Origin: an uncultured Acidobacteriota bacterium
GTDB lineage: Bacteria > Acidobacteriota > Vicinamibacteria > Vicinamibacterales > 2-12-FULL-66-21
DNA: 64,000 nt
Direction: 5' to 3'
NCBI GenBank assembly: GCA_963749835.1
Contig: CAVVOD010000003.1
Span: 257,045 to 321,044, forward strand
Shown: piece after piece, positions 33,151-62,148 of the stretch
How positions within the stretch are numbered: position 1 is the first letter of the stretch
Layout: each line of letters begins with the position of its first letter
Translations under genes and position numbers: made by a program
Notes under the pieces: generated by a model
The model's input: only the letters and a program-made list of their open reading frames with translations
Told to the model about the DNA's origin: nothing
Databases searched by the model: none

Positions 33151-33296
33151 GAGCTATCAGCTGACAGCTATCAGCCCTCAGCTTCGCCTGCAGTTTCGAG
33201 TTCCGCGTCAGTTCCCAGTCTTCCGCTTCCAGGTCCCATTCTTTGGCTACTGGACCGGTTACGGCGCCGCTGATAGCTGACAGCTGAAAGCTCCGA
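33151..33296. repeat. Heptamer arrays arranged as inverted arms (CAGCTAT-type left, GCTGATA-type right) around CAGTTTC-type units
   Basis: Left arm: gagctat cagctga cagctat cagccct cagcttc. Centre: cagtttcgagttccgcgtcagttcccagtcttccgcttccaggtcc. Right arm: gctgata gctgaca gctgaaa gctccga. It fills part of the gap between the paralog 4 stop and the Gfo start. Confidence 0.7.
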
Positions 33297-33468
33297 TGCG
33301 CCGCCCAGCATACACCGCCGTCGCGGCCCCCAGGCGCGCGCGTCCGCGCCCTGGTGTCCTGACCGCATGGTTCGCGACATAACTGCCGGGCGGGGCATCC
33401 CGCCTGGCAGCGTTGCCATGCGGGCGCCGCGCTCCGGGACTTATGCCACGATCCACGCGGTCAGGACA

Positions 33469-36240
33469 CTAGCTTCCCGCTCCTGGTCTGTACAACCGCA
33501 GCCGCAGCATCGACCAGGGCGGAGCCCCCTCGACGGATGCTGTCTGCGTCAGCCGCACGAACTTTGCCTGCACGGGAGAGAACCGGATTGCGGTACTCAC
33601 TCCGGTCCCGGCTCCCCTGGCGACAGTCGTCCACTGTGTGCCGTCTGTGGAAATGTCGACGACGTATTCGCGCGGAAATCCTGAGGTCGGCGGTGGCGCG
33701 CCGGCGCCGCGCCCTCCGCCGATGCGTGACGAGTCGAACTGGATCTCCGTGACTGGCGTCGCCTGCGGAAGCTCGACCTGGAACCACATGCCGGGCGCCT
33801 GCGAAGTGCCGCTGCTCCACGTCGCGAAGTTGAACGCCTGGGCAGCCTTCTCCGTGTTGTGGCTCGCCGTCGCTTTCCACCCGGCATCGGCGGGGAGTGC
33901 GGCCGGCACCGATGCGACGAGTTGATCGAAGGTCCAGTTCGCCGTCCGGCTCGAGGTCGCCGCGCGCACGCGCGCGACGTCCGCGGCCGATACGAACGGC
34001 GCGGCGTTACCGTACGTGTTGCGGATGTACGACGCGATCGACGCAATCCACTCATCGCGGTTGGACCCCATGGGCACCATCACGCCACCGGCATAGGCCC
34101 GGCCGTCCAGGGGACCCGTCAGCCCGTGCAGCAGGGTCTTGATGACGTAGTCGGGGTGCCCGGTGATGCGTGGGTTGCCGACGAACGCCGGAGCCATGAT
34201 CGTGCCGGCTGCCGCCCCCGCGAGTGGCGCGCCTCGTCCGTCATCGCCGTGGCACGAAGAGCACAGCTCTTTGTGAATCGCATCCCCGCGCTGCATGGCG
34301 GCAAGCTCGTCCTCCGAGAACGGGTTGTTGCCCGGACGTCCGTAGGTCAGCGCCGGCGGATTCAGGATCTGCCGGCCGACTTCCTGGACGCCGCGCGCCG
34401 GGTTCGCTGCCTGCGCGGTCGCGACCGTCTCCGCAACTCTGGGCTCCTTGAGGACGTTCAGTGTCAGCATCGCCTGGATCACGACGTCCACATCGGTGTC
34501 CTGCGCGAGCCTGCGGTAGTCGCCCGCCAGGGATCGATCGCCGGCTTTATAAAGCGTCTCGCTCACGCGAATCGCCTGTATCCGCATCTTCGGATTCGGA
34601 TCCTCCAGCTGCTGCCGCACGAGTGCGGCATCGAGCGCGCCCAGTCCCTCCAGCGTCCACATCGCATGGAACCGGCCGAAGAGGCTCGGCGACGAGCGCA
34701 CCATCTTCTGCAGCGCCGGGACCACGGATTGGTCCTGCTCGAGGACGAGCAGCTGCTGCGCCGTGTCGCGCCACCAGCCGTTCGGATGATCGAGGTGAGT
34801 CACGAGCTGCGCCGCGGTCTCGTTCAGCATGCGCGGCTGCGTTCGATCGCGCCCGGTGCTCTCGTGCGACAGACGCCAAATCCGTCCGCGTCGCACGATT
34901 TTCGCCAGCTGATACTGATCGATCTTCGCACGCAGGTAGCTGCCCGGCTGGGTCCACGTCCCTTCCTGGATGATCCCGCGATACAGATCGACGATGTATT
35001 CGGTGCCGTCGGGAGCGGTGGCGATATCGACGGGACGGAACAGATGGTCCGTCGATCGAATGAACTCGGAGTGCTCCCACTGGTGCACGTTCTGGAGTTG
35101 CGTGAGCCCCTCGGTCACGACCGGCCTCACGCGGCGCACGATCCGGGCGACCGGTTCGCCATAGAGATAATCGCCGAGCAGATCCTTCGGCATCCGGTGG
35201 CCACGGACGAAGTCGTTGCCCGCGGATCCCGTCACGCTCACAAGCGTCAGATCCGGACGACGTATCGCGCTCGTGCCCGGCTGAAAATCGCCAACCCCCG
35301 AAACGCCCCAGGGAATCTCGAACCCCGGTGCGAGTTGATCCGGCACTCTGAAGTTGCCGTAGTGAATCGGGAACTGGAAGTACGACGGCAGCCCGCTGGC
35401 GCCTCCCTGAAACCACATCTTGCCGAAATCGTCGTGCGTGATCCCCCACTGCGCGCCATTGGTGCCTGTCGGCTCCCGGACAACGCCGTTCGGCGTCCAC
35501 CGGACCCTGAAGGCGTTGTAGGTGCTGTACAGCCAGTTGTCCATGCCCCAGTGGAGGCTGCTCTGCTGATGCTCGACGTTGCCGGCCCGCCCGAAGTTCG
35601 TGGTGAAGAGCTCCTTCTTGTCGGCCACTCCGTCACCGTTCGTGTCCGTGTACCGCCATACCTCATCCTGGTTCGACTCCATCGTCAGAATGCTGTTGGC
35701 GCCGAACGGCAGCACGAACCGCGGAAACACCAGCTTGTCGACGAAGACCGAATGTTTCTCGTACACGCCGTCGTGGTTCACGTCCTCGTGCACGGAGATG
35801 CGTCCGATCGGATCGAGCTCGCCGGTCGCATCCGCATCCTGCATGTAGGCGCGGATCTCGACGACGAACATGCGGCCGTTGCCGTCGAACGCGATTTGCG
35901 TGGGCTCCTGGACGTCAGGCTCGGTGAGAACCGGCTCCATCTTGTAGCCGGGCTGCAGGACGAATCGCTTCTGCTGTTCCGCGGCAGAGACCGCGACAAT
36001 CGGCGGCTTGGGCGTCAGGTCCGCACCCTCGAACGGATCCGGACCACGCCCTCCGGTCCCGCGGGCGCCTGGCACGGGGGGGGCCCCCTGCGGTGGCGGC
36101 GTCGGCGTCGGCGCAGTCTGGACAGGTGCGGCCGACGGTGCCGTCGGTGTCTGCGCGACCACGACGAAGCAGGCGACATACACGCCCAGCGCGGCGGTGA
36201 GCAGCCGCGCGAAGCGCGAGCGGGCAAGTCTGGCGGTCAT
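33469..36240 (-). CDS. PVC-type haem-binding CxxCH / dehydrogenase-like protein with a discoidin-like tail (paralog 4)
   Basis: The track ORF is 33469..36261 (TTG start). The likely start is ATG 36240 (MTARLARSRFARLLTAALGVYVACFVVVAQ). Contains QQKRFVLQPGYKMEPVLTEPDVQEPTQIAFDGNGRMFVVEIRAYM, HPNGWWRDTAQQLLVL and CSSCHGDDGRG. Tail: PGMWFQVELPQ...YVVDISTDGTQW...AKFVRLTQTA. Confidence 0.85.
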   Translation of the reverse strand: MTARLARSRFARLLTAALGVYVACFVVVAQTPTAPSAAPVQTAPTPTPPPQGAPPVPGARGTGGRGPDPFEGADLTPKPPIVAVSAAEQQKRFVLQPGYKMEPVLTEPDVQEPTQIAFDGNGRMFVVEIRAYMQDADATGELDPIGRISVHEDVNHDGVYEKHSVFVDKLVFPRFVLPFGANSILTMESNQDEVWRYTDTNGDGVADKKELFTTNFGRAGNVEHQQSSLHWGMDNWLYSTYNAFRVRWTPNGVVREPTGTNGAQWGITHDDFGKMWFQGGASGLPSYFQFPIHYGNFRVPDQLAPGFEIPWGVSGVGDFQPGTSAIRRPDLTLVSVTGSAGNDFVRGHRMPKDLLGDYLYGEPVARIVRRVRPVVTEGLTQLQNVHQWEHSEFIRSTDHLFRPVDIATAPDGTEYIVDLYRGIIQEGTWTQPGSYLRAKIDQYQLAKIVRRGRIWRLSHESTGRDRTQPRMLNETAAQLVTHLDHPNGWWRDTAQQLLVLEQDQSVVPALQKMVRSSPSLFGRFHAMWTLEGLGALDAALVRQQLEDPNPKMRIQAIRVSETLYKAGDRSLAGDYRRLAQDTDVDVVIQAMLTLNVLKEPRVAETVATAQAANPARGVQEVGRQILNPPALTYGRPGNNPFSEDELAAMQRGDAIHKELCSSCHGDDGRGAPLAGAAAGTIMAPAFVGNPRITGHPDYVIKTLLHGLTGPLDGRAYAGGVMVPMGSNRDEWIASIASYIRNTYGNAAPFVSAADVARVRAATSSRTANWTFDQLVASVPAALPADAGWKATASHNTEKAAQAFNFATWSSGTSQAPGMWFQVELPQATPVTEIQFDSSRIGGGRGAGAPPPTSGFPREYVVDISTDGTQWTTVARGAGTGVSTAIRFSPVQAKFVRLTQTASVEGAPPWSMLRLRLYRPGAGS

Positions 36241-36261
36241 CTGCACTTCTCTCCCGAACAA

Positions 36262-36294
36262 ATGGGGACACTCACCTTTACAGTAAGTTGTTGA
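36262..36294 (+). repeat. Copy 4 of the conserved 33-nt element / micro-ORF MGTLTFTVSC*
   Basis: atggggacactcacctttacagtaagttgttga. It is divergent from, and 21 nt away from, the ATG of paralog 4. This is the same geometry as copy 3 relative to the creatininase gene. Confidence 0.8.
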
Positions 36295-36320
36295 GCCGTA
36301 TAGGGGAATCTAGGAACGTA

Positions 36321-36350
36321 TCAGCTCTCAGCTTTCAGACCTCAGCTCAG
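36321..36350. repeat. Heptamer tandem repeat TCAGCTC-type x4
   Basis: tcagctc tcagctt tcagacc tcagctc ag. Confidence 0.6.
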
Positions 36351-36419
36351 CGCACGGGGACCTTGGCCCATCATCCGGCGAGCCGTTGTGAGACTTTTCT
36401 TGTGGCCTGCATTCGTTCA

Positions 36420-37274
36420 CTAGTTCGGGAACAACGTGCGCAGGTGACGCAGGCCCTCTGTCGCCAGTGCATCCTGCGACGTGGCAAACGAGCGCCAGAT
36501 CGCGGCGGCGCGGGCGATCGACTTCACCTTGTTGGTGAACGACTCGATCACCATCGGACCCTTGTAGCCGATGTCGCCGCACGCCTTGGCGACCTCGTCC
36601 CAGGGCACATGACCCGAGCCTGGCGCACCGCGATCGTTCTCGCACGTGTGGAGGTGACGCATCCTCGGACCGGCGGCGCGAATCGCGTCCCCGATCGAGC
36701 GCTCTTCAATGTTCATGTGGAAGGTGTCGAGCAGGATCCCGCAGGACTTGTGATCCACGCGGTCCACGACCTCGATCGCCTGCGACGCCAGGTTCAGGAA
36801 GCTCGTCTCGAACCGGTTCAGCGGCTCGACACAGATCGTCACGCCGCGGTCGCCGGCGAATGTCGCCAGCTCGCGCAGCTGACCGACCAGCAGATCCAGG
36901 TCCTGCGTGCGCTCATCTGCGGTCTGCTGCCACGTCCTCCCGACGGCGCTGTACAACGGCCCGACGACATTGGCGGCGCCGAGCGTCTTCGCCGCGTCGA
37001 TGCAGTGCTTGACGTAGTCCATGCCGTTCGTGCGGATGCTCGCGTCCGGATGAATCAGGTCGCGGTCGGGCCCCATCGCGGCGCACACACTGACGGCCAG
37101 GTTGTTCGCCTTCGCGATCTCTCCACCCTTCTTGTAGTCGAGATCCGTGACGCTCTCGATCGGCACCTCGACGAGATCGAACCCCATGCCGGCGATCATG
37201 GGCGCCAGCCGGGCGAGCTCCTCGGTATTGATCGGTGACGACCAGACCCACGCGTTCACACCTATCTGCGCCAT
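36420..37274 (-). CDS. Xylose-isomerase-like TIM-barrel sugar epimerase/isomerase (ketose 3-epimerase-like)
   Basis: The track ORF is 36420..37412. I trimmed it to ATG 37274 (MAQIGVNAWVWSSPINTEELARLAPMIAGMGFDLVEVPIE...). Contains VEPLNRFETSFLN, LLDTFHMNIEE and HLHTCENDRG. Confidence 0.85.
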   Translation of the reverse strand: MAQIGVNAWVWSSPINTEELARLAPMIAGMGFDLVEVPIESVTDLDYKKGGEIAKANNLAVSVCAAMGPDRDLIHPDASIRTNGMDYVKHCIDAAKTLGAANVVGPLYSAVGRTWQQTADERTQDLDLLVGQLRELATFAGDRGVTICVEPLNRFETSFLNLASQAIEVVDRVDHKSCGILLDTFHMNIEERSIGDAIRAAGPRMRHLHTCENDRGAPGSGHVPWDEVAKACGDIGYKGPMVIESFTNKVKSIARAAAIWRSFATSQDALATEGLRHLRTLFPN

Positions 37275-37335
37275 GTTGCACTCCCCGATGAAATCAAAAC
37301 GAATCACTCCTCGCGGATCGTCGCCGCCGAGGCCG

Positions 37336-38211: not shown

Positions 38212-38264
38212 CGCACACCCTGGCCCGCCTTCGCCGCCAAGCGGCTACAGCCTGGCGCGCCGCT

Positions 38265-38328
38265 GGCACCTTGGCACCTTGGCACTCTGGCACCGTGGCA
38301 CCTTGGCACCCTGGCACTTCGGCGCCCT
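38265..38328. repeat. Octamer tandem repeat GGCACCTT x8
   Basis: ggcacctt ggcacctt ggcactct ggcaccgt ggcacctt ggcaccct ggcacttc ggcgccct. It lies in the divergent region between DUF1080 (start 38211) and xylA. Confidence 0.9.
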
Positions 38329-38373
38329 GTCTGATTGCGCGCAGTCCGCGTCCCCGAGTAATCTAGCGCGTTC

Positions 38374-39616
38374 GTGGCGCTGCATGATACCGCAGCTAAA
38401 CCGTTGCACGGGGCTGAGGCGCATGGCCCCGCAGGAGACCTCGTCCGATGTCCGACCAGGTACACCCCTCGTCCTGAGCACAAGTTCTCATTCGGCCTGT
38501 GGACCGTCAGCAACCGCGGCCGGGATCCGTTCGGTGAAGCGGTGAGGCCGGCTCTTCCGCCCGTTGATGCGGTCGCGATGCTGGGAGAGGTCGGCGCGTG
38601 GGGCGTCAACCTTCACGACAACGACCTGGTGCCCATCGACGCCACGCCGTCCGAGCGCGATCAGATCGTGAAGGACTTCCAGGCCGCCTGCGCGCGCCAC
38701 AACGTCGTCGTGCCGATGGCCACGGTGAATCTTTTTTACGATCCCGCGTTCAGGGACGGCGCCTTCACGGCCAACGATCCGGCCGTGCGCGCGTACGCGA
38801 TCCAGAAGACGATGCGCGCGATGGATCTGGGAGCCGAGCTCGGTGCCAAGACGTTCGTGCTCTGGGGAGGACGCGAAGGGGTGGAGACGGATGCGTGCCG
38901 GCGTCCGGACGAAGCGGTGAAGCGGCTGCGGGAAGCGATCAATTACCTGGTCCGGTACTCGCTCGACAAGAAGTACGGATTCCGCTTCGCGATGGAAGCC
39001 AAGCCGAACGAGCCGCGCGGGGACATCTACATGGCGACGACCGGCGCATATCTGGGACTCATTCCCACGCTCGAGCACCCGGAGCTCGTCGGGGTCAATC
39101 CGGAAGTGGCCCACGAAACCATGGCCGGCTTGAACTTCCTCCACGCCGTCGCACAGGCGCACGAGGCCGGCAAGCTCTTTCACATCGATCTGAACGACCA
39201 GGCGCCGGGCCGCTACGATCAGGACTACCGCTTCGGATCGACCAACATCAAGTGCGCCTTCTTCCTCGTCAAGTTCCTCGAGGAGGTGGGATACGACGGC
39301 CCGCAGGCACTTCGACGCGCACGCCTATCGCACGGAGGACTACGACGGCGTCCGTGATTTCGCCCGCGGCTGCATGCGGACGTATCTGATCCTCAAGGAG
39401 CGTGCGGAGCGCTGGGGCGCGGACGCGGAGATCCAGGCCATGGTCAAAGACCTTGGGAAAGCGTCCGCCAGCGTTCCGCCGATGACGGAATACTCGACGA
39501 AAGCAGGCGACGGCCTCCTCGAGCACACGTTCGACAGAGCCGCCCTCGCCAGCCGCGGGCTCGGCTACGAGCGGCTCGACCAGCTGACGATGGAAGTGAT
39601 CCTGGGAGCGCGGTAG
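38374..39616 (+). pseudogene. Xylose isomerase (short, actinobacterial-type class I) with a 1-nt frameshift near codon ~310
   Basis: Track ORF 38374..39357 reads [25 protein letters not shown]..., [26 protein letters not shown]. The C-terminus continues in ORF 39374..39616 (RTYLILKERAERW...). Reading [23 protein letters not shown] requires dropping one base at 39301-39307. The start is also unclear: ATG 38448 (MSDQ) is out of frame by one base with YTPRPEHKF. Confidence 0.8.
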
Positions 39617-39618
39617 AC

Positions 39619-39798
39619 ATCAGCCGTCAGCAATCGGCTCTCAGCTATCAGCTATCAGCACGGACTGAAGGTTAAGAGCAGAAACCTGAGACCTTGTATT
39701 GCCAGTTTCCAGTAGCCAGTTTCCAGTGGCCGGCCGGGGACTGGGAACCGATGACTGGCAACTGGGAACTGAACTGACCACTGAGAGCTGAGAGCTGA
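39619..39798. repeat. Composite intergenic repeat block: TCAGCTA heptamers, a CCAGTTT/ACTGGGA inverted arm pair, GAGAGCT heptamers
   Basis: atcagccgtcagcaatcggctctcagctatcagctatcagca ... gccagtttccagtagccagtttccagtggccggccggggactgggaaccgatgactggcaactgggaactgaactgaccactgagagctgagagctga. It fills the xylA-xylB gap from 3 nt after the stop to 5 nt before the ATG. Confidence 0.75.
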
Positions 39799-39802: not shown

Positions 39803-41297
39803 ATGCCCGTCCTAGGAATCGACGTTGGAACGACCGGCTCGCGTGCGCTGCTGCTCGGTGAAGACGGACGCCTGATCGCGTCGACGACGGCGGACCATGC
39901 GCCGTTCCGGTCGCCGCAGGCGGCATGGGCCGAACAGGATCCGGACGACTGGTGGCGCGCGTCGCAGGAGGCGGTCCGTTCGCTGCTGACGCGGACCGGC
40001 ATCTCCCCCAAGGCGATCTCCGCCGTTGGCCTCTCGGGGCAGATGCACGGCGCGGTGCTGCTCGACGATGGCGGCAGGGTGCTGCGGCCGGCGATCATCT
40101 GGTGCGACCAGCGCACCGAGCAGGAGTGCCGGTGGCTCGATGGGCATGTCGGTCCGGCGCGCCTCCTGGAGCTCACCGCCAATCCGGCGCTCACCAACTT
40201 CACGCTCACGAAACTGCTCTGGGTCCGCACCCACGAACCGACGATCTGGAGCCGCGTGAAGCACGTGCTCCTCCCGAAGGATTACATCCGGTATCGACTG
40301 AGCGGCGAGTTCGCGATCGATGTCGCGGATGCCTCCGGAACGCTCATGCTCGACGTCGTCCGCCGCCGCTGGTCGCAGGACATGATGGAGATCGTCGGCA
40401 TCGATGCCGGTGTGCTGCCGGCGCTCTTCGAGTCGCCGGAAGTGTGCGCGCGCGTATCGGAGCAGGGGTCTGCATCGACGGGAATCCCCGCCGGCACACC
40501 TGTCGTCGCGGGTGCGGGTGACCAGGCCGCCGGCGCCGTGGGCATGGGAATCACGCGTCCCGGCACCGTGAGCGCGACCCTGGGAACATCAGGCGTGGTC
40601 TTCGCGGCTACCGACCGGCCCTTCCTGGATCCCGGTGGCCGCCTCCATACGTTCTGCCACGCGATCCCCGATCGATGGCACGTCATGGGGGTCACGCAGG
40701 CGGCGGGGTCTGTCGCTCCGGTGGCTGCGCGATCAGTACGGACTGTCGGAGGCGGGCGATCGCGCGTACGAATCCATGGTGACGGAGGCCTCCGGCGTCG
40801 CGCCCGGAGCCGAGAATGTCCTGTGGGCGCCGTATCTCATGGGTGAGCGCACGCCACACCGGGATCCGAACGTCCGCGCCGCGTTGCTGGGGCTCGCCGC
40901 CAGCCACACGCGCGGACACGTCGTCCGCGCCGTGATGGAAGGCGTGGCGTTCAGCCTGCGCGACTCGTTCACGATTTTTGCGGAGCTCGGCCTGCCGGTG
41001 GAGAAAGTCCGGGTCGGCGGTGGCGGCGCCCGCTCTGACGTGTGGCGTCAGATACAGGCGGACGCCTATGGGATGAGCGTCGAAACAGTCGAGACCGAGG
41101 AGGGAGCTGGATATGGCGCGGCGCTGCTGGCCGGTGTCGGCGCCGGGTACTGGAAATCCGTGGACGAGGCGTGCGATGCCGTCGTCCATACAGCACAGGT
41201 GACGCCCGCCCGGGCGGACGTCGTCCCGGTCATGAGCGACCGCTACGCCCAGTATCGGCGGGTCTATCCGGCCCTTCGGACGATCTACAACCCCTGA
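39803..41297 (+). pseudogene. Xylulokinase (FGGY family) with a 1-nt frameshift at about 40707-40712
   Basis: Track ORF 39803..40846 reads MPVLGIDVGTTGSRALL..., GLSGQMHGAVLLD. It continues in ORF 40635..41297 from SLRWLRDQYGLSE... through PYLMGERTPHRDPN and VGGGARSDVWRQIQADAYG. Confidence 0.8.
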
Positions 41298-41383
41298 AGA
41301 ATCGACCCCGGCAGGAGTCCTGCCGTTTTATCGCCTGTTTTCGGACTTCCTGGTCTCCTTTATTCAGCCGCGGACGTTGCGGC

Positions 41384-42034
41384 ATGCGGGGGATTCGTTT
41401 TATGATCCCCCTCATGGCTACCTTCAAAGTTCCTCGCTGGATTAACCAATCCGTTATCGGTATCTCGGTCGTGGTCACGCTGACGGCGGTATTCGGCGCG
41501 GGTATGCCACCTGATGTCGACCAGAATGCGGCGCCGCCCGCGGCGGCTGCGAAAGACGGGCTGTGCCCGGCTGGATTCACTGGCTCGCCGGAGACGAAGT
41601 GCGTCGATGTCAACGAGTGCGCGGTCCGCAATGGCGGATGCAACAAGCTCGCGGCGTGCGTCAATACTCCTGGTTCGAGAACATGCGGTGGGTGCCCGGA
41701 GGATTTTGCGGGTAACGGGTATGTGGGGTGCTTCGATGCGAACGAATGCCCCAACGGGGACTGCACCAGCCGTCTGCCGATCGGGTTCGAGACCGCGGAG
41801 CCTCCGACGGTGACGACGTCGGGAGACGTGACCGTCGCTTCGACCTCGGCCACCGGAGGTGTCGCCACGTTCACCGCGACGGCAGAGGACAAGGTCGATG
41901 GCAAGCTATCGGCGTCCTGCTCGCCGGCATCAGGATCGACGTTCCCCGTCGGGAAGACGACCGTCAGCTGCTGGGCCACCAACAGCCTCGGCAAGCTGAA
42001 GACCGCATCGCTGGCGGTCACGGTGACGAAGTAG
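41384..42034 (+). CDS. Small secreted protein with a calcium-binding EGF-like module and a C-terminal HYR (hyalin repeat)-like Ig domain
   Basis: The start is uncertain (ATG 41384, 41402 or 41414) and there is a hydrophobic anchor INQSVIGISVVVTLTAVFGAG. cbEGF-like segment: CVDVNECAVRNGGCNKLAACVNTPGSRTCGGC. HYR-like segment: GGVATFTATAEDKVDGKLSASCSPASGSTFPVGKTTVSCWATNSLGK. Confidence 0.65.
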   Translation: MRGIRFMIPLMATFKVPRWINQSVIGISVVVTLTAVFGAGMPPDVDQNAAPPAAAAKDGLCPAGFTGSPETKCVDVNECAVRNGGCNKLAACVNTPGSRTCGGCPEDFAGNGYVGCFDANECPNGDCTSRLPIGFETAEPPTVTTSGDVTVASTSATGGVATFTATAEDKVDGKLSASCSPASGSTFPVGKTTVSCWATNSLGKLKTASLAVTVTK

Positions 42035-42047
42035 CGCTGCGCGCGTC

Positions 42048-42136
42048 GGGATCAGGGATCAGGGATCAAAATCGTGGGTTCTTCAGAATCCCAATCCCCA
42101 ATCCCGAGCCCCGAATCCCGAGTCCCGAATCCCGAT
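42048..42136. repeat. GGGATCA x3 followed by an AATCCC/GAATCCCGA C-tract array (inverted arrangement) between convergent genes
   Basis: gggatcagggatcagggatca aaatcgtgggttcttcag aatcccaatccccaatcccgagccccgaatcccgagtcccgaatcccga. Confidence 0.8.
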
Positions 42137-42159
42137 ACGCGTGCCGAAGGCGAGCTCCG

Positions 42160-43269
42160 CTATGCGAGCATCTCCTTGGAGATCTGCAGGCACTTCGCCA
42201 CTTCGACGATCGGGTCCCCCGGATACTCGAACTCCACGTTCCCGGGAATGTCCCACTTGTTCTGCTGAAGCAGCTTCAATACCGGCTTGATCGGCGTGTC
42301 TCCCTCGCCCCACGGCACGTTCGCGCCGTGATTCTTCTTCCGATCCTTGAGGTGCAGGTGCGTGATCCGGGCGTGATGCTCCTGGATGTACGGCACCGGG
42401 TCGAAGTTCGCGGCCGTGAAGTGGCCGATATCCAGATTGATCGCGTGGTACTTGGAGGCCGCAAGAATCGTCGCGAAGCTCTCGGGCGTCGCGGTCTCGT
42501 CCGGGTTGTCCAGGTTGTCGTGGCCGTGGAAGGCAAGCAGGATCTTGTGCTTGTCGGCAAACGGCGCGGTCCGCTTCGCCATGCTTACCTGGGTCGAGGT
42601 CGAGATCGCCTTCACACCCAGCGCCCCCGCCATCATGAACGCGTACTCGATCTCATCGTCTTTGGTGTTCTTGACGTTCATGTTGAAGCAGAGGATCCGC
42701 AGGTCGATGCCGGCGTCGGTGATCTTCTTCTTCACCGGCGCGAACGTTGCGGCCGTCGCGGCCATCCGCCACTTGCGGAGGGCCTCAGCGCGAGCGTCAG
42801 CTTCTGCCTGTTCCTCCGGCGTCAGCACCCGTCGTCCGCCGCCCTGCCGTCCGGCAGGTGCGGGCCCTGCTGGAGCGGCACCCGCAGCTGGAGCCGGTGT
42901 CCCGCCAGAGGCCGCAGTGGGAGGCGCAGCTGCGGGAGGTGCCGGGGGCGACCCGCCGGCAGTTCCACGACCGCGGCCGCCTGCCGGCGCCATCGGGATC
43001 GGGGCGCCTGCCAGCATCTCGGCGTGGTTCGACATCAACTCCATTTCGCTCAGCCCGATCGTCACATAGGCGGTGATGATGTCCGCGGGGTTGGGGATCG
43101 AGCGGAAGCTGTAGGTGATTGCGCCGATCTGTACGCCGTTGATCTTCGAATCGATCGGCCCGAAGGCCTTCAGGTTGCCGAGAGCGAGCGTCACCGGCAG
43201 CCCGGCGAGCGCGAGTTTGCCGAAGTCTCTGCGTGAGTACAGAAATTCATCCCTGTCGCTGATGGCCAT
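42160..43269 (-). CDS. TAT-exported xylose-isomerase-like TIM-barrel protein with a ~70-aa GGRG/Pro-Ala insert
   Basis: 369 aa. Twin-arginine N-terminus YSRRDFGKLALAGLPVTLALG. Insert: APAGGRGRGTAGGSPPAPPAAAPPTAASGGTPAPAAGAAPAGPAPAGRQGGGRR. The C-terminal barrel (AFHGHDNLDNPDE, HLHLKDRKKNHGANVPWGEGDTP) has an architecture paralogous to 24666..25872. Confidence 0.8.
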   Translation of the reverse strand: MAISDRDEFLYSRRDFGKLALAGLPVTLALGNLKAFGPIDSKINGVQIGAITYSFRSIPNPADIITAYVTIGLSEMELMSNHAEMLAGAPIPMAPAGGRGRGTAGGSPPAPPAAAPPTAASGGTPAPAAGAAPAGPAPAGRQGGGRRVLTPEEQAEADARAEALRKWRMAATAATFAPVKKKITDAGIDLRILCFNMNVKNTKDDEIEYAFMMAGALGVKAISTSTQVSMAKRTAPFADKHKILLAFHGHDNLDNPDETATPESFATILAASKYHAINLDIGHFTAANFDPVPYIQEHHARITHLHLKDRKKNHGANVPWGEGDTPIKPVLKLLQQNKWDIPGNVEFEYPGDPIVEVAKCLQISKEMLA

Positions 43270-47097: not shown

Positions 47098-47106
47098 CCC
47101 TAGTCA

Positions 47107-47143
47107 CTAATCCCCAATCCCGAATCCCCAATCCCGAGTCCGG
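47107..47143. repeat. C-tract array AATCCCC/AATCCCG x4 (G-rich on the minus strand, 5' of the permease gene)
   Basis: ctaatccccaatcccgaatccccaatcccgagtccgg. Confidence 0.7.
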
Positions 47144-47243
47144 CCAATTACACCACGACCCGTTGCCGTTCGTTGGCGGGCCCGGCGCTGAGGGGTCGCC
47201 GGTGGCCCTGGCACATGGCTCAACCGTCGCGTGTGCCCCGGAA

Positions 47244-47306
47244 GCACGTGGCACGTAGCACGTAGCACGTAGCACGTAGCACGTAGCACGTAGCACGTAG
47301 CACGTG
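47244..47306. repeat. Heptamer tandem repeat: GCACGTG + GCACGTA x7 + GCACGTG (9 units)
   Basis: Counted base by base from line 47221. There are seven identical GCACGTA units flanked by two CACGTG-containing units. The array ends 12 nt before ATG 47319. Confidence 0.95.
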
Positions 47307-47318
47307 AGAGACTCTGCC

Positions 47319-48797
47319 ATGCGCTGGTGCGTCCTGCTTCTCGTGCTCGTCGCCGTTCCCGTCGGCGCCCAGTCGCCGCGCGAGTTCCGCTGGGCGGCGG
47401 ACCCCGAAGGAGGCGCCCCGTACGTCGAGGCGGATGCGGCAGATCCTTCCCGCGTGCAGGGCTTCGAAGTCGAGATTGCCGACCTGATTACACGCGCACT
47501 CGGTCGAACGCCCCGGTTCATCTTCGTCACGTACGCCTCCATCGATCAATCAGTGGCGCGCGGAGACGTCGAGCTCGGCCTGAACGGACTCGAGGACACC
47601 CCGGCCCGCCGTGCCGCCATGGCCGTCACGGTCCCGTACTACGAGTTCCGGGAAGTCCTCTCCGTCAGGACCGCCGACGCCTCGCGGTTCCGCACCTTGT
47701 CGGACCTGAAGGGGCGGCGCGTCGGGACGCTGGGAGGAACCCTCGCATACGAGATCCTGCTCGGCGCCGGCGGCCGGTTTGGCATCGAGGCCGTGTCCTA
47801 CGACGACGACGTGCATCCCTATAGCGATTTGCTGCTCGGGCGCGTGGACGCCGTTTTACTCGACAACGTGATCGCCGAACGCCGCGGACGTCAGATGACC
47901 GGCGTCGCGATTCAGCCGGAGACCGTCGCGATCGGTCACTACGTGGGCGTACTCGCGCCCCAGAACACCGCCATGCGTGATGACGTCAGCGCCGCGCTGC
48001 TCGGCGCCATGCGTGACGGCTCCCTGGAACGCATCCTTCGGAAGTGGCGGATATGGAACGACGATCAGCCGGCACTCCACGCGAAGCTGCTCAGCGGCTC
48101 CGCACCCATCGCGAGCGCCCAGGAGAGCGCGGCTGCCCCTCCCGCCACACGGTGGCAGATAACGCGACGCTATCTGCCGACGCTCCTCCGCGCGGCGGGT
48201 GTGACGCTCGTCCTCTCCTGCGTTTCCATGGCTGCCGCGGTCGTCCTCGGCATGTTGATCGCAAGCGGCCGCGTGTATGGCGCGGCACCTGTGCGGTTCA
48301 TCCTGACGGGCTACGTGGAGCTGATGCGCGGGACGCCCATCCTGCTCCAGTTGTTCGTCATCTATTACGGACTTGCGGCGGCCATCAAATTGCCGGCCTT
48401 CGTGGCGGCGCTGACGGGGCTGGCGCTGAACTATGCCGCCTACGAGAGCGAGATCTATCGCGGGGCGCTCGAGTCCGTCCCCACCGGGCAGCTCGAGGCG
48501 GCGCGGACACTCGGGTTCACCGAGCGGCAGATCCTGACGCTCATTCGCGGCCCCCAGGCATTTCGCCTGGCGCTCCCTCCGATGACGAACGACTTCGTCG
48601 CGCTGCTGAAAGACTCGTCGCTCGTCTCGGTGCTGACGGTCGTTGAACTGACGAAGCAGACGCAGATCTTCGCCGCCAACATCGGCAGCTGGGTCATTCC
48701 CGGGTCGCTCTGCGCCGCCCTGTACCTCGCCATGTCGCTGCCGCTCGCGGGGGCCGCGCGGCGTCTCGAACGGCGGTGGAAGGCCGCGACGTCATGA
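47319..48797 (+). CDS. Polar amino-acid ABC transporter, substrate-binding domain fused to the permease (GlnP/HisM-like)
   Basis: The track ORF starts at GTG 47304. ATG 47319 gives the signal peptide MRWCVLLLVLVAVPVGAQS. There is an SBP-like half, then TM segments and the EAA-loop region ALNYAAYESEIYRGALESVPTGQLEAARTLGF. Confidence 0.85.
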   Translation: MRWCVLLLVLVAVPVGAQSPREFRWAADPEGGAPYVEADAADPSRVQGFEVEIADLITRALGRTPRFIFVTYASIDQSVARGDVELGLNGLEDTPARRAAMAVTVPYYEFREVLSVRTADASRFRTLSDLKGRRVGTLGGTLAYEILLGAGGRFGIEAVSYDDDVHPYSDLLLGRVDAVLLDNVIAERRGRQMTGVAIQPETVAIGHYVGVLAPQNTAMRDDVSAALLGAMRDGSLERILRKWRIWNDDQPALHAKLLSGSAPIASAQESAAAPPATRWQITRRYLPTLLRAAGVTLVLSCVSMAAAVVLGMLIASGRVYGAAPVRFILTGYVELMRGTPILLQLFVIYYGLAAAIKLPAFVAALTGLALNYAAYESEIYRGALESVPTGQLEAARTLGFTERQILTLIRGPQAFRLALPPMTNDFVALLKDSSLVSVLTVVELTKQTQIFAANIGSWVIPGSLCAALYLAMSLPLAGAARRLERRWKAATS

Positions 48798-51712: not shown

Positions 51713-51790
51713 CAGGGTGCCAGGGGTGCCAGGGGTGCCAGGGGTGACCAGGGGTGACAGGGCGACAGGGCGACAGGGCGACAGGGCGAC
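51713..51790. repeat. G-tract tandem array: (GGGGTGCCA)x3, (GGGGTGAC[C]A)x2, (GGGCGACA)x4
   Basis: cagggtgccaggggtgccaggggtgccaggggtgaccaggggtgacagggcgacagggcgacagggcgacagggcgac. It starts 2 nt after the stop codon. Confidence 0.85.
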
Positions 51791-55349: not shown

Positions 55350-55545
55350 CGCGGTCCTCGCGGACGACGGACAGGTTACCTTCCCACAAGCCGGAGCCTG
55401 CCAGCTCTAGAATGCGCTTCGCCTTGGCGCGACGGACGAAATCCTCCAGCGCGCGCTCGACCGTACGGGAGTACGTGCGCTCACCACTCAGCCTGGTGGC
55501 CTCCTCGAGCAGATCGCCGTTCAGCACAAGATTTGTGCGTCTCAT
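55315..55545 (-). CDS. VapB-type antitoxin
   Basis: 76 aa. MRRTNLVLNGDLLEEATRLSGERTYSRTVERALEDFV. Immediately upstream of and overlapping the PIN gene. Confidence 0.7.
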   Translation of the reverse strand: MRRTNLVLNGDLLEEATRLSGERTYSRTVERALEDFVRRAKAKRILELAGSGLWEGNLSVVREDRGAFRTRRRGSR

Positions 55546-55707
55546 GTGTATTGAGTGTAATCCCCCAACACTACTTCGTCAAACCCGGTGGTCCAGCGAT
55601 CTGCCGTCTCACCGTCGCAGTCCCGTTTCTGAGGCACTTCAAGTCCTATCGTCAGCTCAGCCGCAGGCATCCTGTACGATGGTCCCGCAAAATTCACCGG
55701 AGGGCAG

Positions 55708-58429
<2,722 letters not shown>

Positions 58430-58579
58430 CCCGTCTCGACACGGCCCGCGGGCGTTGCAAAAAAGAGAACTGTTTCGACCGGCGCGGCGTACGGGGTTGC
58501 ACTCACGGATGTTGCAGAGCCCGTGCCACGCGGTTTTCGTGAATGGCGGGCCCACTCTTCTGTCTGGCTCGGGCTTTGA

Positions 58580-58963
58580 CTACTTCGAAGGACGGCGCAG
58601 TGTCTTCTTCTTCGCGGCCTTCTCCTTCATGAGTGCTTCGGCGATTTCGGCCATCGCAAAAGTGCGTTCGTCGTCCAGGGATCGGATGGCCGGTTGATTC
58701 CACCAGGAGCGCCTGGGAGACGGGCTCGTCTCGTCCCAGTGGTTCATCACGGCATCGAACATTCGCCCTTCTGCCAATTCGACAACATCGTCATCGTGGT
58801 AGAACTCGTCGTCGAGCCGCCGTTTCAAGTGAAACGGCACTACCTCCTTCCACCTTTGATCACCGACCTTTCTGTTGAGCGTGCGTCGCATGGTGTCGCG
58901 GAACTCAGCAACGCGTGCCGGGGATCCAAGCACTACCAGGCGATTGAGGTAAGTCACAGACAT
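58580..58963 (-). CDS. Hypothetical protein (127 aa), lower-GC
   Basis: The ORF has codon-like third-position bias. MSVTYLNRLVVLGSPARVAEFRDTMRRTLNRKVGDQRWKEV... with a Lys-rich C-terminus. No family recognised. Confidence 0.45.
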   Translation of the reverse strand: MSVTYLNRLVVLGSPARVAEFRDTMRRTLNRKVGDQRWKEVVPFHLKRRLDDEFYHDDDVVELAEGRMFDAVMNHWDETSPSPRRSWWNQPAIRSLDDERTFAMAEIAEALMKEKAAKKKTLRRPSK

Positions 58964-58980
58964 TCGGTTCTCCGCTTGAA

Positions 58981-58997
58981 GCTGATAGCTGATAGCT
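58981..58997. repeat. Heptamer repeat GCTGATA x2 (+ partial)
   Basis: gctgata gctgata gct. It lies in the divergent gap between the hypothetical gene and vapB. Confidence 0.5.
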
Positions 58998-59035
58998 ATG
59001 TTGACATCTGATGCGTGATGCGAGATGTTAACGAG

Positions 59036-59260
59036 GTGCGGACAACATTGGATATAGAGGACGACGTGCTGCAGGCGGCGAAAGAGATTGCCGCCAGTCG
59101 TGGCGTGACTGCGGGCAGCGTGGTGTCCGAACTGATCCGCAAAGCCCTCCAGCCTGCGGCCGGTGCAGCGCGCGTGCGCAATGGTGTGCCCCTGCTTTCA
59201 CGCCCACCGGGAACGCCGGTGATGACGATGAAGGTGGTCAATGAATTGAGAGACGAGTGA
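59036..59260 (+). CDS. VapB-type antitoxin
   Basis: The track ORF is 59015..59260. GTG 59036 gives (M)RTTLDIEDDVLQAAKEIAASRGVTAGSVVSELI, the usual VapB N-terminus. Confidence 0.7.
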   Translation: MRTTLDIEDDVLQAAKEIAASRGVTAGSVVSELIRKALQPAAGAARVRNGVPLLSRPPGTPVMTMKVVNELRDE

Positions 59261-59703
59261 GGCGTCCGGCGTTGCTCGATGTGAACGTGCTCGTCGCACT
59301 GTTCGATGCCGCGCACGTGCACCACGAAGCGGCCCACGACTGGTTCTCGGACAACCGGAAGGACGGCTGGGCGACCTGCGCGATTACGGAGAACGGATTC
59401 CTGCGTGTCCTGACGAATCCAAAGTCTGGCCTGACTGAACGTGCGCCCGCGATCCTCGACGGCCTCAGAGTCTTCTCCGCCAGCGGCCACCATGTGTTCT
59501 GGCCGGACGTCCTGTCGCTTCGCGACGAGCTATTCGACCTGTCACAGGCCCAGGGTCATCGTCAGGTGACCGACATCTACCTGCTGGGACTCGCGGCAAA
59601 AATGGGCGGCGTACTTGCGACGTTCGACCGATCGATCCCGGTGAAGGCCGTCAGAAACGCGCGAGCCGACACGCTTGCGGTCATCGCATCGGTCGCTGAC
59701 TGA
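59257..59703 (+). CDS. PIN-domain ribonuclease toxin VapC
   Basis: 148 aa. MRRPALLDVNVLVALFDAAHVHHEAAHDWF and VTDIYLLGLAAKMGGVLATFD. 4-nt overlap with vapB. Confidence 0.85.
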   Translation: MRRPALLDVNVLVALFDAAHVHHEAAHDWFSDNRKDGWATCAITENGFLRVLTNPKSGLTERAPAILDGLRVFSASGHHVFWPDVLSLRDELFDLSQAQGHRQVTDIYLLGLAAKMGGVLATFDRSIPVKAVRNARADTLAVIASVAD

Positions 59704-59742
59704 CGCACGACTCGATCGTCGCGCAGGCGGGCGGCTGCTGGT

Positions 59743-59991
59743 TCAGGAAATCACGTCGTCCATCAACCCTTGTATCTCGGAGCGCCATTGCAGGCGCTGC
59801 GTGACGTCGGCTCGCCGTGCGGCGACCCAGGCGAGCACCTGCGCGAGCTCGCACGCATCCTCACACGGTGCTGTGGTTCCCTGGACGCGAACGCGATCCG
59901 TGAGTTTCTGCGCATGCGGGGCCACCCTCTTGTGCGCCGGGGTCCCGTCGTAACCGGATGCAGCGACGCCGGAGACTCGGGCGGCGGCCAT
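59743..59991 (-). CDS. Hypothetical small protein (82 aa)
   Basis: The ORF has high third-position GC and is last in a minus-strand run after vapBC and the 60104..60352 ORF. No family recognised. Confidence 0.35.
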   Translation of the reverse strand: MAAARVSGVAASGYDGTPAHKRVAPHAQKLTDRVRVQGTTAPCEDACELAQVLAWVAARRADVTQRLQWRSEIQGLMDDVIS

Positions 59992-60103
59992 CGGTCCTCA
60001 GGCCGCAGCGACAGGCCCGTCCAATGTGGAAGCCTCATTGAAGGCAGTCTACCGGGAGGCCGTGACAGGTCGGGTCATACGCCCGTTGTTCGCCCGCGCC
60101 GAT

Positions 60104-60352
60104 TCAGGCCTCGGGCTTTGTCTTCAACAGGGCGTCGTTTTCCTTGATAAACGCACGAATTTCGTCAGCCATGGACAGCAGCCTGGTCCACTGCTCCTTG
60201 TAGAGCGTCACCGGGAACCGGCCAAGCCCGTAGACCGAGACGCCGCCTTTCTCGCTCACTTTGAGGCTGACGCTTCGGCCTCGCTGGCTCTTGAGTTGCT
60301 CATTCTCCGCTTTGAGCCGCGCGAGTTCGGCTTTCAAGTCTTCGTCTGACAT
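60104..60352 (-). CDS. Hypothetical small coiled-coil protein (82 aa)
   Basis: MSDEDLKAELARLKAENEQLKSQRGRSVSLKVSEKGGVSVYGLGRFPVTLYKEQWTRLL... It looks like a conserved small protein, but I cannot name a family. Confidence 0.5.
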   Translation of the reverse strand: MSDEDLKAELARLKAENEQLKSQRGRSVSLKVSEKGGVSVYGLGRFPVTLYKEQWTRLLSMADEIRAFIKENDALLKTKPEA

Positions 60353-60397
60353 CTGGGATCTCCAATTGTGTGACGCCGATCAGGGCTCGGAATCTGG

Positions 60398-60805
60398 CTA
60401 GAGAATGCGGCCGTGCAGCATGATGGGCAGAACGGCAGCGAACCGCGTGAAGTCGGCGTCGGCAGTCAGGATCGGAAGGTTACGCCGTTCGGCCGCCGCA
60501 CAGATCAGGAAGTCAGTATTTGATCCCTGCACCCCCTGCGCACGACATGTGTTGAAGTGCTCGGCCGCCCGCTCGAAGTCGGCCGTGTCGAGTGGTTCGT
60601 CGGAAAACGGCCGCAGGTGATGCCGCAACCGCTCAAACGTGTCGTGACTACGGATGCCGCTCAGCAGCTCCTGGCGGATCACGCCGAGCATCGCGACTCG
60701 TCCTTCGTCGATGAGCGACCGGAGCTCGTCCACCGCGGCGCTCGGCTGGGACGTGCGACGACGCAGCGCGAGCGACCATACGGAAGTGTCGACCACGACC
60801 TTCAT
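60398..60805 (-). CDS. PIN-domain ribonuclease toxin VapC
   Basis: 135 aa. MKVVVDTSVWSLAL and GSNTDFLICAAAERRNLPILTADADF. Confidence 0.85.
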   Translation of the reverse strand: MKVVVDTSVWSLALRRRTSQPSAAVDELRSLIDEGRVAMLGVIRQELLSGIRSHDTFERLRHHLRPFSDEPLDTADFERAAEHFNTCRAQGVQGSNTDFLICAAAERRNLPILTADADFTRFAAVLPIMLHGRIL

Positions 60806-61002
60806 CGTCGGCGCCGCTGTTTCTTGTAGTCGTACTTCGGATCGTAGTCCACCGTGCCGAAGAGCCTTGCGACCTGCGCCTGGCGGCGTCGGGCGATATA
60901 CTCCTGCAGCGCCTCGGTGACAGCTTCTTTCTTGGTACGCCGGCCCCCCACTGCCACGGCTTCCTCGACGAGGGAGGGATCGAGGTCAAGGTTGGTTGCC
61001 AC
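60802..61002 (-). CDS. VapB-type antitoxin
   Basis: 66 aa. MATNLDLDPSLVEEAVAVGGRRTKKEAVTEALQEYI. 4-nt overlap with vapC. Confidence 0.75.
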   Translation of the reverse strand: MATNLDLDPSLVEEAVAVGGRRTKKEAVTEALQEYIARRRQAQVARLFGTVDYDPKYDYKKQRRRR

Positions 61003-61110
61003 TCACACATTACACCACACATTTGTCTGTGTGGACAAGTACTGCCAAGCTGGCACGTCGCTGCCAGCTCTTGACCGGCCCGGGGTCTGGCAGCGGTAGG
61101 GGACAGCGCG

Positions 61111-62064
61111 CTATCCCGCCGCCGTGACCTCGTCGTAAGCGGGCCCGAGCGGACGGGCGATCAGCGGGCCGTAGTCCTCGAAGCCTTTGATGATGTCGGT
61201 TGACGCCACGATCTGTTCGCGGGTCTTCCCTGCCTTCACCTGTGAGCGGACGTATTCGAGGAGCGCCGTCAGGTAGGTCGCATGATGATTGAGGTCGGCG
61301 CGGCTGCCGGTCACATCGAACTTCGGGCCTGCGTGGCCGAAGATGTAGATCGTATCCGCGGGCAGCTCCGCCGCGACCTTCTGGAGCACCACCGTCCAGT
61401 TCGCGATCGACGCGCCGTTCGTGCGGTCGATCACCGGGTGCGCGCGGTTGAACATCAAGTCCCCCATGTGCGCGACGTTCGCCCTTTCGAAGACGATCAC
61501 GACATCGCCGCCTGTGTGCGCAGAACCGTAGTGCTTCACAGATACGCGCTCGTCGCCGTGGTCGAATGCCAGGGCGTCCGTCAGCGTCTTGTCTGGAACC
61601 ACGGGCTCCGTCGGCGCAGGTGTTGTCGGCGCCGGTTTCTGCTCCGCGCGCCGCGACATGGCGAGCTCGAAGCTGGACTTCATGTACTTCGGCACGTTCG
61701 CGTGGCCGATGATCTGCTTCGTCTTTGGCCGGAACACGCCGTTGCCGCCGGTATGGTCGCCGTGATGATGACTGTTGACGAGCGTCGCGATGTCGGTCTT
61801 GCCCGACGTCTTCAACAGCTGCTCGACGCATAGCGCCGCGGTGTCGGGAAACTGGCTGTCGACCGCCACCACGCCTGTCGGATTGATGAGCCACCCGATT
61901 GTCCCGCCGCGCGCCGTCCAGTACCCGGTGTTCCGCCTGATCTCTTTGAACACCGGCGTAACCGGTTCTGGTGGCTGCTGGCCAAACAGCGTCAGCCGCC
62001 CGGAAGTGCTGGCCGCGATCGCGGCGGTGGAGGTCGCGAGGAAGTGACGGCGTGAGATAGGCAT
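61111..62064 (-). CDS. MBL-fold metallo-hydrolase with a twin-arginine signal
   Basis: 317 aa. MPISRRHFLATSTAAIAASTSG and NSHHHGDHTGGN. Confidence 0.85.
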   Translation of the reverse strand: MPISRRHFLATSTAAIAASTSGRLTLFGQQPPEPVTPVFKEIRRNTGYWTARGGTIGWLINPTGVVAVDSQFPDTAALCVEQLLKTSGKTDIATLVNSHHHGDHTGGNGVFRPKTKQIIGHANVPKYMKSSFELAMSRRAEQKPAPTTPAPTEPVVPDKTLTDALAFDHGDERVSVKHYGSAHTGGDVVIVFERANVAHMGDLMFNRAHPVIDRTNGASIANWTVVLQKVAAELPADTIYIFGHAGPKFDVTGSRADLNHHATYLTALLEYVRSQVKAGKTREQIVASTDIIKGFEDYGPLIARPLGPAYDEVTAAG

Positions 62065-62077
62065 GGGGGAGATGATA

Positions 62078-62148
62078 CAGCTATCAGACTTCAGCTATCA
62101 GCTATGAGTGGTCAGCCTGAAAGCTGACCGCTGATGGCTGACGGCTGG
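62078..62148. repeat. CAGCTAT heptamers, a perfect 7-bp hairpin, then GCTGA-type units (inverted arrangement)
   Basis: cagctatcagacttcagctatcagctatgag t GGTCAGC ctgaaa GCTGACC gctgatggctgacggctgg. Confidence 0.7.

Follow-up and report, generated by a model that had tools for sequence, protein, structure and literature searches.

Oriented heptamer repeat families and imperfect intergenic palindromes in the genome of an Acidobacteriota bacterium

Background

Why should the gap between two bacterial genes carry tandem units of 7 nucleotides (nt) on one side and their reverse complements on the other? The question is raised by four long imperfect palindromes in the genome of a Vicinamibacterales-like Acidobacteriota bacterium (8.0 Mb in four contigs, 65.5% GC), all of them located in a stretch of 64,000 nt to which we refer as the window (positions 257045-321044 of contig C3). 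An initial annotation of the window had described its heptamer arrays as being organised in inverted arms, and had seen in this either an expansion of the repeats that preserves hairpin potential or a selection for stem-loops able to pair in several registers. We propose, with moderate confidence, that the four palindromes are local instances of microsatellite families with units of 7 nt (and also of 8 nt), and that the inverted arms are mostly the consequence of a rule that orients each family to the flanking gene.

Heptamer repeats are among the most abundant unexplained intergenic features in several bacterial phyla, and Mrazek et al. (2007, cited in PMC4692102 and PMC4679880) reportedly described an unexplained excess of tandem repeats of period 7 in the intergenic DNA of certain prokaryote lineages. 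The relatives of the present bacterium in public collections are metagenome-assembled genomes (MAGs) from soil, labelled Acidobacteriota or Vicinamibacterales. The completeness of the genome itself was estimated at 91.8%. Genes were called with our own codon-usage model of open reading frames (ORFs), and the flanking genes were named by Pfam.

The four palindromes of the window

The palindromes described in the initial annotation are indeed present at all four sites, with arms that are 74-92% complementary. Inverted arms were located by a repeat search of the window sequence, complementarity being given as a percentage over the length of the arm. Throughout, f designates the strand form that occupies the left (5') arm of an inverted pair, reading 5' to 3' away from the gene towards the gap; its reverse complement is designated r.

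At site 1 the f-type left arm (33151-33183) consists of the units GAGCTAT, CAGCTGA, CAGCTAT, CAGCCCT and CAGCT, and the r-type right arm (33269-33293) of GCTGATA, GCTGACA, GCTGAAA and GCTC; the stretches 33151-33175 and 33269-33293 pair over 25 nt with 92% complementarity, leaving a spacer of 93 nt. The centre (33193-33262), in which degenerate CAGTTTC/CCAGT-type units stand opposite CTACTGGACCGG, forms an inner stem in the predicted fold and overlaps a 21-nt (3x7) repeat at 33201-33243. Site 2 is a nested structure. Its outer arms, made of TCAGCNN units on the left (39619-39659) and of ACTGACC, ACTGAGA, GCTGAGA and GCTGA on the right (39774-39798), pair at 39641-39658 and 39781-39798 (18 nt, 89%) and also at 39634-39658 and 39774-39798 (25 nt, 80%), while the inner arms of CCAGTTT/CCAGTAG units (39699-39733) and ACTGGGA/ACTGGCA units (39734-39771) pair without a spacer at 39699-39733 and 39734-39768 (35 nt, 74%). 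The left arm of site 3 (42040-42068) is G-rich and f-type, with GGGATCA repeated three times, and the right arm (42086-42141) is C-rich and r-type, with GAATCCC/GAGCCCC/GAGTCCC units; they pair at 42040-42066 and 42115-42141 (27 nt, 74%). At site 4, CAGCTAT units (62078-62108) face GCTGACC, GCTGATG, GCTGACG and GCTG (62123-62147), the paired stretches 62078-62108 and 62117-62147 (31 nt, 74%) enclosing the perfect central hairpin GGTCAGC-CTGAAA-GCTGACC at 62110-62129.

The possibility of pairing in several registers was also borne out, alternatives shifted by 7 nt being listed at each of the four sites. The RNA minimum free energy of each site was compared with that of 200 dinucleotide shuffles on each strand, and all sites folded better than the shuffles on both strands. 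The z values for the plus and minus strand, respectively, were -4.2 and -4.7 for site 1, -4.9 and -4.5 for site 2, -6.7 and -3.8 for site 3, and -7.6 and -4.7 for site 4.

The organisation in inverted arms applies, however, to four of the 11 array-bearing gaps of the window and not to the other seven. These contain 7-, 8- or 9-nt arrays at 3280-3299, 11799-11877, 36321-36348, 38264-38317, 47109-47305, 51715-51790 and 58980-58997, and no inverted partner of at least 12 nt that would pair the array with a separate arm was found in any of them; they hold only a few self-overlapping or weak pairs of 12-13 nt.

Heptamer families and their polarity

The arrays of the window belong to a large population. 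Seven is the commonest tandem-repeat period of the genome (1,708 rows of Tandem Repeats Finder, TRF), and there are about 1,600 heptamer arrays genome-wide, 82% of the period-7 arrays being intergenic. The dominant families are few: GGGATTC/GGGACTC/GGGGATC (hereafter GGGAYTC), TCAGCT(A/G/C/T) (TCAGCTN), CTACGTG, CCAGTTN and the 8-mers GGTGCCAG and CACGGAGN. Together, arrays of periods 7, 8, 14, 16 and 21 make up 1.06% of the genome, and those stretches of them that are intergenic account for 5.1% of the intergenic DNA. They are found in 34% of the convergent, 22% of the co-directional and 16% of the divergent gaps, and a third (33%) of the distances between an array and a stop edge place the array within 10 nt of the stop codon.

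The polarity of each family is fixed, the f forms being TCAGCTN, GGGAYTC, CCAGTTN, CTACGTG, GGTGCCAG and CACGGAGN. Among neighbouring heptamer arrays, taken genome-wide as those within 250 nt of each other, 170 pairs are inverted (median spacer 32 nt) and 54 are direct. Individual units occupy the f role almost exclusively, as seen from the counts against the opposite role for GGGATTC (53:2), TCAGCTA (45:3), TCAGCTG (42:1), CTACGTG (41:0), TCAGCTC (35:1) and GGGACTC (35:0). The same is observed for the 8-mer arrays, with 26 inverted and four direct pairs and nearly every unit in a single polarity. A regular-expression census that does not depend on the consensus units of TRF gave 99 f...r against five r...f arrangements, and a census of the six families gave 309 f...r, 15 r...f, 64 f-f and 66 r-r pairs. 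No fewer than 88 of the 309 f...r pairs join arms of different families, which are unable to base-pair. Moreover, solitary arrays near a gene edge follow the orientation rule in 264 cases against 85, at stop and start edges alike, and paired arrays follow it in 244 against 25. The rule extends to the relatives: in 760 kb of their loci, inverted pairs exceed direct pairs by 24 to 3, and the arms whose units occur in the polarity dictionary of this genome agree with it by 14 to 0. Since the f...r arrangement is identical on both strands, polarity is not an effect of the replication or transcription strand.

As a separate observation, the deposited strand carries more C-rich (r-type) than G-rich arrays of the GGGAYTC family whatever the gap type (355 vs 277 in one instance), which may be a replication-strand bias.

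Several properties were considered as a shared rule for polarity. By inspection of the units, G versus C, T versus A and purine content each fail in at least one major family, and the same is true of a shared TC dinucleotide, of start codons and of stop codons sought in all frames. Likeness to a Shine-Dalgarno sequence, which was computed, is stronger in the r form of TCAGCTN and CCAGTTN and in the f form of GGGAYTC, CTACGTG and the 8-mers. The units are slightly more homogeneous at the gene-proximal end of the arrays (0.82 vs 0.785, p <= 0.005), and this holds in both orientation classes.

Three of the solitary arrays of the window can serve as examples. The array of about 12 CGAATCC/CCGATCC units at 11799-11877, which lacks an inverted partner, is C-rich and r-type on the plus strand; it adjoins the stop of gene 11877-14870 on the minus strand and is thus G-rich and f-type in the sense of that gene. 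Nine AGCACGT units at 47243-47305, the r form of the CTACGTG family, lie 13 nt before the start at 47319 and likewise have no partner. The r-type octamer array at 38264-38317, with seven copies of TGGCACCT, lies upstream of a xylose-isomerase-like gene; no convincing partner was found for it, the single weak pair (38236-38248 and 38295-38307, 13 nt, 77%) overlapping the array itself. The divergent gap 47098-47318 holds an exception, the AATCCCC array on its left (47109-47135) being in the "wrong" r orientation and the nine AGCACGT units on its right obeying the rule.

Independence and turnover of the arms

Hairpin potential is real and not random, since inverted neighbours outnumber direct ones and both arms belong to one family in 221 of the 309 f...r pairs, where 101 +/- 7.5 are expected. 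An expansion that preserves this potential, as put forward in the initial annotation, was not supported. Over the inverted pairs of the genome the lengths of the two arms are only weakly correlated (Spearman 0.25, Pearson 0.09), and in a quarter of the pairs the discrepancy exceeds three units. Complementarity is no higher between true partners than after an exchange of arms between loci that share a unit class (0.548 vs 0.539, p = 0.5). The variable letter of the unit does not match between the arms either, agreeing in seven of 36 pairs of the TCAGCTN family (10 expected) and in 15 of 41 pairs of the GGGAYTC family (20.7 expected). These deficits might suggest that the arms avoid perfect complementarity, an idea that was set aside: the TCAGCTN deficit is not significant (p = 0.17), and that of GGGAYTC carries no formal test. 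On the sense strand of co-directional gaps no excess of G:U over A:C was found (60 vs 80). Selection on the fine scale of the stems is not supported either.

The orthologous gaps also speak against a coordinated gain or loss of units on both arms: polarity is kept, while the family, the copy number or a whole arm changes. The gap of site 2 was compared in ten species of the genus, and arrays of 7- or 8-nt units fill it in each of them. An f array follows the stop and an r array precedes the start in nine of the ten; the genome G016 has an r-then-f junction in addition. The units belong to different families in different species (TCAGCTN, CCAGTNN, GGTGCCAA, TCCCAGC, CTACGTG-type and GCTGGTA), arm length varies between 0 and 14 units, the two arms are of differing families in three species, and one species has an r arm only. 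At site 1, for which twelve genomes were available, both arms exist only in the present genome and in G020. Four others (G016, G010, G017 and G013) have only r-type arrays, of four to about 26 units, abutting the ribosome-binding site, and no arrays were found at this position in the more distant species among the twelve.

Site 3 has arms of seven and three units here, of four and four in a contig with a flanking gene that shares 94% protein identity, and of four and nine in G010. The element is absent from G017 and from contig L058, where the gap measures 4 nt; G009 has an f-type array together with a canonical terminator, and in more distant relatives (L049, L051, L082 and L047) the gap contains a canonical stem followed by six T residues (T6). 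In several species the stop of the gene ending at 42160 is followed by some hairpin, including cases with a different downstream neighbour. For site 4 the single relative available, G022, has an r-type array only.

The closest comparison is provided by two metagenome contigs, L045 and L046, with flanks about 99% identical. Their left arm of four units is identical, and their right arms measure about 81 nt and about 35 nt, a difference of some six units. Independent variation of arm copy number between strains, which the initial annotation had named as an outcome speaking against its own interpretation, is therefore what this pair of contigs and the orthologous gaps display.

Gene setting of the four sites

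Site 1 is situated between a conserved GTATGCT motif and the Shine-Dalgarno sequence GGAGGA (33141-33146) of a gene encoding a GFO/IDH/MocA oxidoreductase. The motif (33304-33319; orthologous loci L159-L169) is conserved in 11 of 12 upstream regions, that of the present genome included, and probably reflects the -10 element of the lineage; on this conservation, TATGCT at 33308-33313 on the minus strand is a putative -10 element of the oxidoreductase gene. Because site 1 lies between this candidate element and the ribosome-binding site, its hairpin would be within the 5' untranslated region (UTR) and not at a 3' end. Upstream of it, an imperfect palindrome of 114 nt (33355-33468, 55-nt arms with 75% complementarity, 4-nt loop) that is not built of heptamers starts exactly at the stop (33469) of a minus-strand DUF7133/F5_F8-type-C gene.

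Site 2 fills the gap between the xylose-isomerase-like gene and an FGGY kinase gene, its left arm beginning 3 nt past the TAG stop of the former and its right arm ending 4 nt before the ATG of the latter. The kinase ORF (39803-41297) encodes 347 amino acids that match relatives only up to residue 303, the frames of the relatives having about 500, and the xylose-isomerase-like gene (38362-39616) is split across two overlapping frames. Either these two genes are pseudogenes or the long-read assembly, which may carry such errors, is frameshifted at both. A canonical-looking terminator is found at 41309-41335, 12 nt past the end of the kinase reading frame, with CGGCAGGAGTCCTGCCG followed by TTTTAT, so that ordinary terminators with a stem and a T-run are also present in this genome.

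Site 3 lies between convergent stops, the left arm 13 nt after the stop at 42034 and the right arm about 20 nt before the stop at 42160. Site 4 is flanked by the stop of a DUF2130-like ORF (62153), from which its right arm ends 5 nt away, and by the start of a gene for a protein of the metallo-beta-lactamase fold. On the minus strand at 62072-62101 there is a promoter-like sequence, CTGATA, an 18-nt spacer and TATCAT, made in part of the r-type units of site 4. TATCAT stands 7 nt before the ATG and is kept in the ortholog of G022 (GTATCATCCCCG atg), a placement that hints at a near-leaderless transcript.

A search for a stem followed by a T-run, together with inspection of the sequence 3' of the right arm, found no T-run after the stem at any of the four sites, and comparison of the whole window with Rfam 15 gave no match at the gathering score.

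Origin of the inverted arms

The arrangement of the arrays, their polarity, and the independence and turnover of their arms are all observed, and can be brought together in one explanation. Arrays often begin at a stop codon or a few bases from it and fill the intergenic gap. Each family holds a fixed orientation to the nearest gene edge, bringing the arrays of the two sides of a gap face to face, and when the two sides have a family in common (about 70% of the pairs) the result is a long imperfect hairpin with several registers. Thereafter each arm gains and loses units separately, most simply by replication slippage, which we take as the probable motor of unit change, and either arm can be replaced by another family or be lost, the stem not being kept by compensatory change. 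Polarity is kept in cross-family pairs and in solitary arrays, hence the rule is not confined to hairpins, and the inverted-arm architecture would be mostly a product of the rule and of local sharing of a family. Where they are transcribed, the hairpins would be stem-loops of a generic kind, situated at the ends of transcripts or between cistrons, and dispensable, as the 4-nt gaps of G017 and L058 at site 3 suggest; the same-family excess, the preference for convergent gaps and the positional equivalence to canonical terminators fit such a role. By analogy with the repetitive extragenic palindromes (REPs) of other bacteria, such predicted stem-loops could impede 3' exonucleases or terminate transcription weakly.

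Four points weigh against this explanation. The excess of same-family arms and of inverted over direct pairs is more than the orientation rule by itself accounts for; matching arms are favoured by something further, be it selection for pairing, copying of an arm across the gap or common origin from a palindrome. Polarity is described by the rule and is not explained by any compositional, coding or Shine-Dalgarno property across the families. The copy numbers of repeats may be misassembled in the MAGs and short metagenome contigs that represent the relatives. Finally, with gene calls that come from an ORF model, the distances to start edges and some of the gap types are approximate.

The first of these points leads to the strongest of the alternatives, that the hairpin itself is selected as an RNA structure that ends or stabilises transcripts, as a terminator free of a U-tract or a REP-like barrier to decay, with the tandem units making it robust to slippage. 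The folding energies on both strands agree with this, as do the matching arms, the arms that begin a few nt past stop codons and the decrease in array frequency from convergent to co-directional to divergent gaps. Moreover a canonical stem with T6 holds the gap of site 3 in the more distant relatives, and some hairpin persists past the stop at 42160 despite differing neighbours. A selected stem should nevertheless leave a trace in its sequence, and neither compensatory change nor a G:U bias on the sense strand was found. At site 2, four of ten species have lost the hairpin or have arms unable to pair, as is the case for most species at site 1, and at site 3 the element is wholly absent from two genomes or contigs. 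The four sites have no T-run, site 1 lies in what is taken as a 5' UTR, arrays also occur in divergent gaps, and polarity extends to solitary and cross-family arrays, which form no stem. Nor do arrays replace canonical terminators, which are present in 10.5% of the array-bearing 3' flanks and in 12.3% of the rest; mutual exclusivity of the two was hence discarded, with the qualification that the terminator finder is crude and returns similar numbers in sense and antisense (543 vs 487). Selection of the hairpin thus appears possible to us, though with well under an even chance.

A second alternative is that the f...r modules are non-autonomous mobile palindromes, comparable to MITEs (miniature inverted-repeat transposable elements) or to REPs and the bacterial interspersed mosaic elements (BIMEs), and possibly spread by a Y1 transposase of the IS200 type or of the REP-associated tyrosine transposase (RAYT) type. 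Each family would have inherited its polarity from a founder, and the solitary arrays would be decayed copies. It is in keeping with this that few unit families occupy hundreds of gaps, with a within-family polarity that is close to absolute, as if the copies descended from one palindrome. The genome has two PF01797 Y1 transposase-like genes (C3:183947-184288 and C3:531488-531727); these may have a connection with the GTAG-type REP palindrome CTTCCGGCTAAAGCCGGAAG found at the tip of 11 of the 170 hairpins. Apart from this REP-like palindrome the centres between the arms are unique, which removes a common central seed as a candidate, and spacers and flanks are unique as well, so no palindrome of 20-40 nt common to the copies was found, as would be expected of REPs or BIMEs. 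Nor do the modules have terminal inverted repeats with defined ends and target-site duplications, as MITEs have: flanking direct repeats are distributed as in the control, no conserved terminal motif was detected and no sequence is conserved outside the stems. Clusters of several families are mostly all-f followed by all-r, which is compatible with nesting, though they are too few for statistics. Besides, arrays persist in orthologous gaps across the genus while their units change, which resembles evolution in place, and the TAACTGA arrays of Beggiatoaceae are almost all solitary and yet oriented to genes (PMC4679880), so that polarity needs no palindromic founder. A mobile-element origin of the arrays is not supported by these results, and we consider it unlikely.

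Also conceivable is a polar process or reader dedicated to writing or maintaining the arrays, for example the addition of repeats to both 3' ends of a break or of a hairpin tip, or a strand-specific binding protein; convergent arms would then be its signature. The possibility arises because the rule spans six unrelated families, holds for arrays without a partner and recurs with the GGGAATC and TAACTGA arrays of other phyla. No compositional rule is shared by the six families among the features compared, cross-family pairs are polar too, and the copy numbers and variants of the two arms are independent, as if both sides were extended separately. The gradient of homogeneity points in the same direction, but it is small. 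That the orientation rule reflects such two-sided repeat addition or a strand-discriminating protein, as opposed to slippage plus chance, seems to us a slim prospect; if true, convergent heptamer hairpins would bear witness to a part of bacterial genome or RNA biology that has yet to be described. As an account of the arrays themselves the process is the least probable of those considered, given that a search limited to PF01797 found no candidate enzyme or template, that many unit types would require many templates or a template-free mechanism, and that nothing separates it from selection acting on orientation.

Comparison with known repeat systems

REPs and BIMEs of Enterobacteria and Pseudomonas are imperfect palindromes located past stop codons and between cistrons, present in hundreds of copies and thought to protect mRNA or to attenuate transcription. 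Each REP is a single palindrome of about 20-40 nt whose sequence is defined and conserved, and RAYTs mobilise it. The arms described here are, in contrast, tandem arrays of variable length with no conserved sequence beyond the unit. With intrinsic terminators they share the position of a stem-loop right downstream of genes, in a gap where distant relatives have a stem and T6, but they have no U-tract, their stems are far longer and mismatched every few bases, and they also occur in 5' UTRs and divergent gaps.

The hallmarks of heptameric simple sequence repeats, that is an excess of period 7, intergenic placement, convergent pairs forming stem-loops and a fixed strand in relation to genes, are all present. 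In Xanthomonas, GGGAATC heptamer repeats form 70-75 convergent inverted pairs per genome that are able to form stem-loops; the G-rich strand is the sense strand in arrays that lie less than 50 bp past the stop and the antisense strand in those upstream of ORFs, and the arrays are often near the stop or overlap it and are under-represented between divergent genes (Rehm 2015, PMC4692102). The same study mentions GGGGA(C/T)T repeats in Nostoc. Our arrays resemble those of Xanthomonas in their 7-nt units, strongly intergenic location, convergent pairs and closeness to stops, and the GGGAYTC family has the same unit type (GGGANTC) and polarity. They differ in belonging to another phylum and in having at least five more families (TCAGCTN, CCAGTTN, CTACGTG and the 8-mers GGTGCCAG and CACGGAGN) with the same geometry. 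Of the families at the four sites, only GGGAYTC (site 3) has a G-rich unit with G-quadruplex potential, the TCAGCTN and CCAGTTN units of sites 1, 2 and 4 being without G-runs. Judged by their sequence, TCAGCTN, CCAGTTN and CTACGTG are not expected to form G-quadruplexes, and G-quadruplex potential therefore cannot unify the arrays.

Marine Beggiatoaceae, as well as some Cyanobacteria and Bacteroidetes, have direct repeats of the heptamer TAACTGA, with the "forward" form (..CTGA) just upstream of start codons, the reverse form after stops and 7-nt insertions or deletions between strains; there are 169 direct sets against one inverted, and the arrays usually replace the ribosome-binding site (MacGregor 2015, PMC4679880). 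TAACTGA resembles the r-type GCTGATA and ACTGAGA units of sites 1, 2 and 4. The arrays of Beggiatoa are almost all solitary, whereas about 310 pairs converge into hairpins in the present genome.

Inverted arms and orientation relative to genes are therefore already known for single families (PMC4692102, PMC4679880). What this genome adds is that families free of G-runs and 8-mers share the geometry, that polarity exists without a pairing partner, and, beyond Rehm 2015, that the arms are independent and turn over at orthologous gaps, which keep the orientation while the rest changes. For annotation it follows that such hairpins should not be labelled by default as terminators, MITEs or regulatory RNAs. 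The convergent hairpin arrangement is not tied to G-quadruplex sequences, the conserved property being the orientation to the flanking gene, and the question moves from the function of the hairpin to what sets the polarity.

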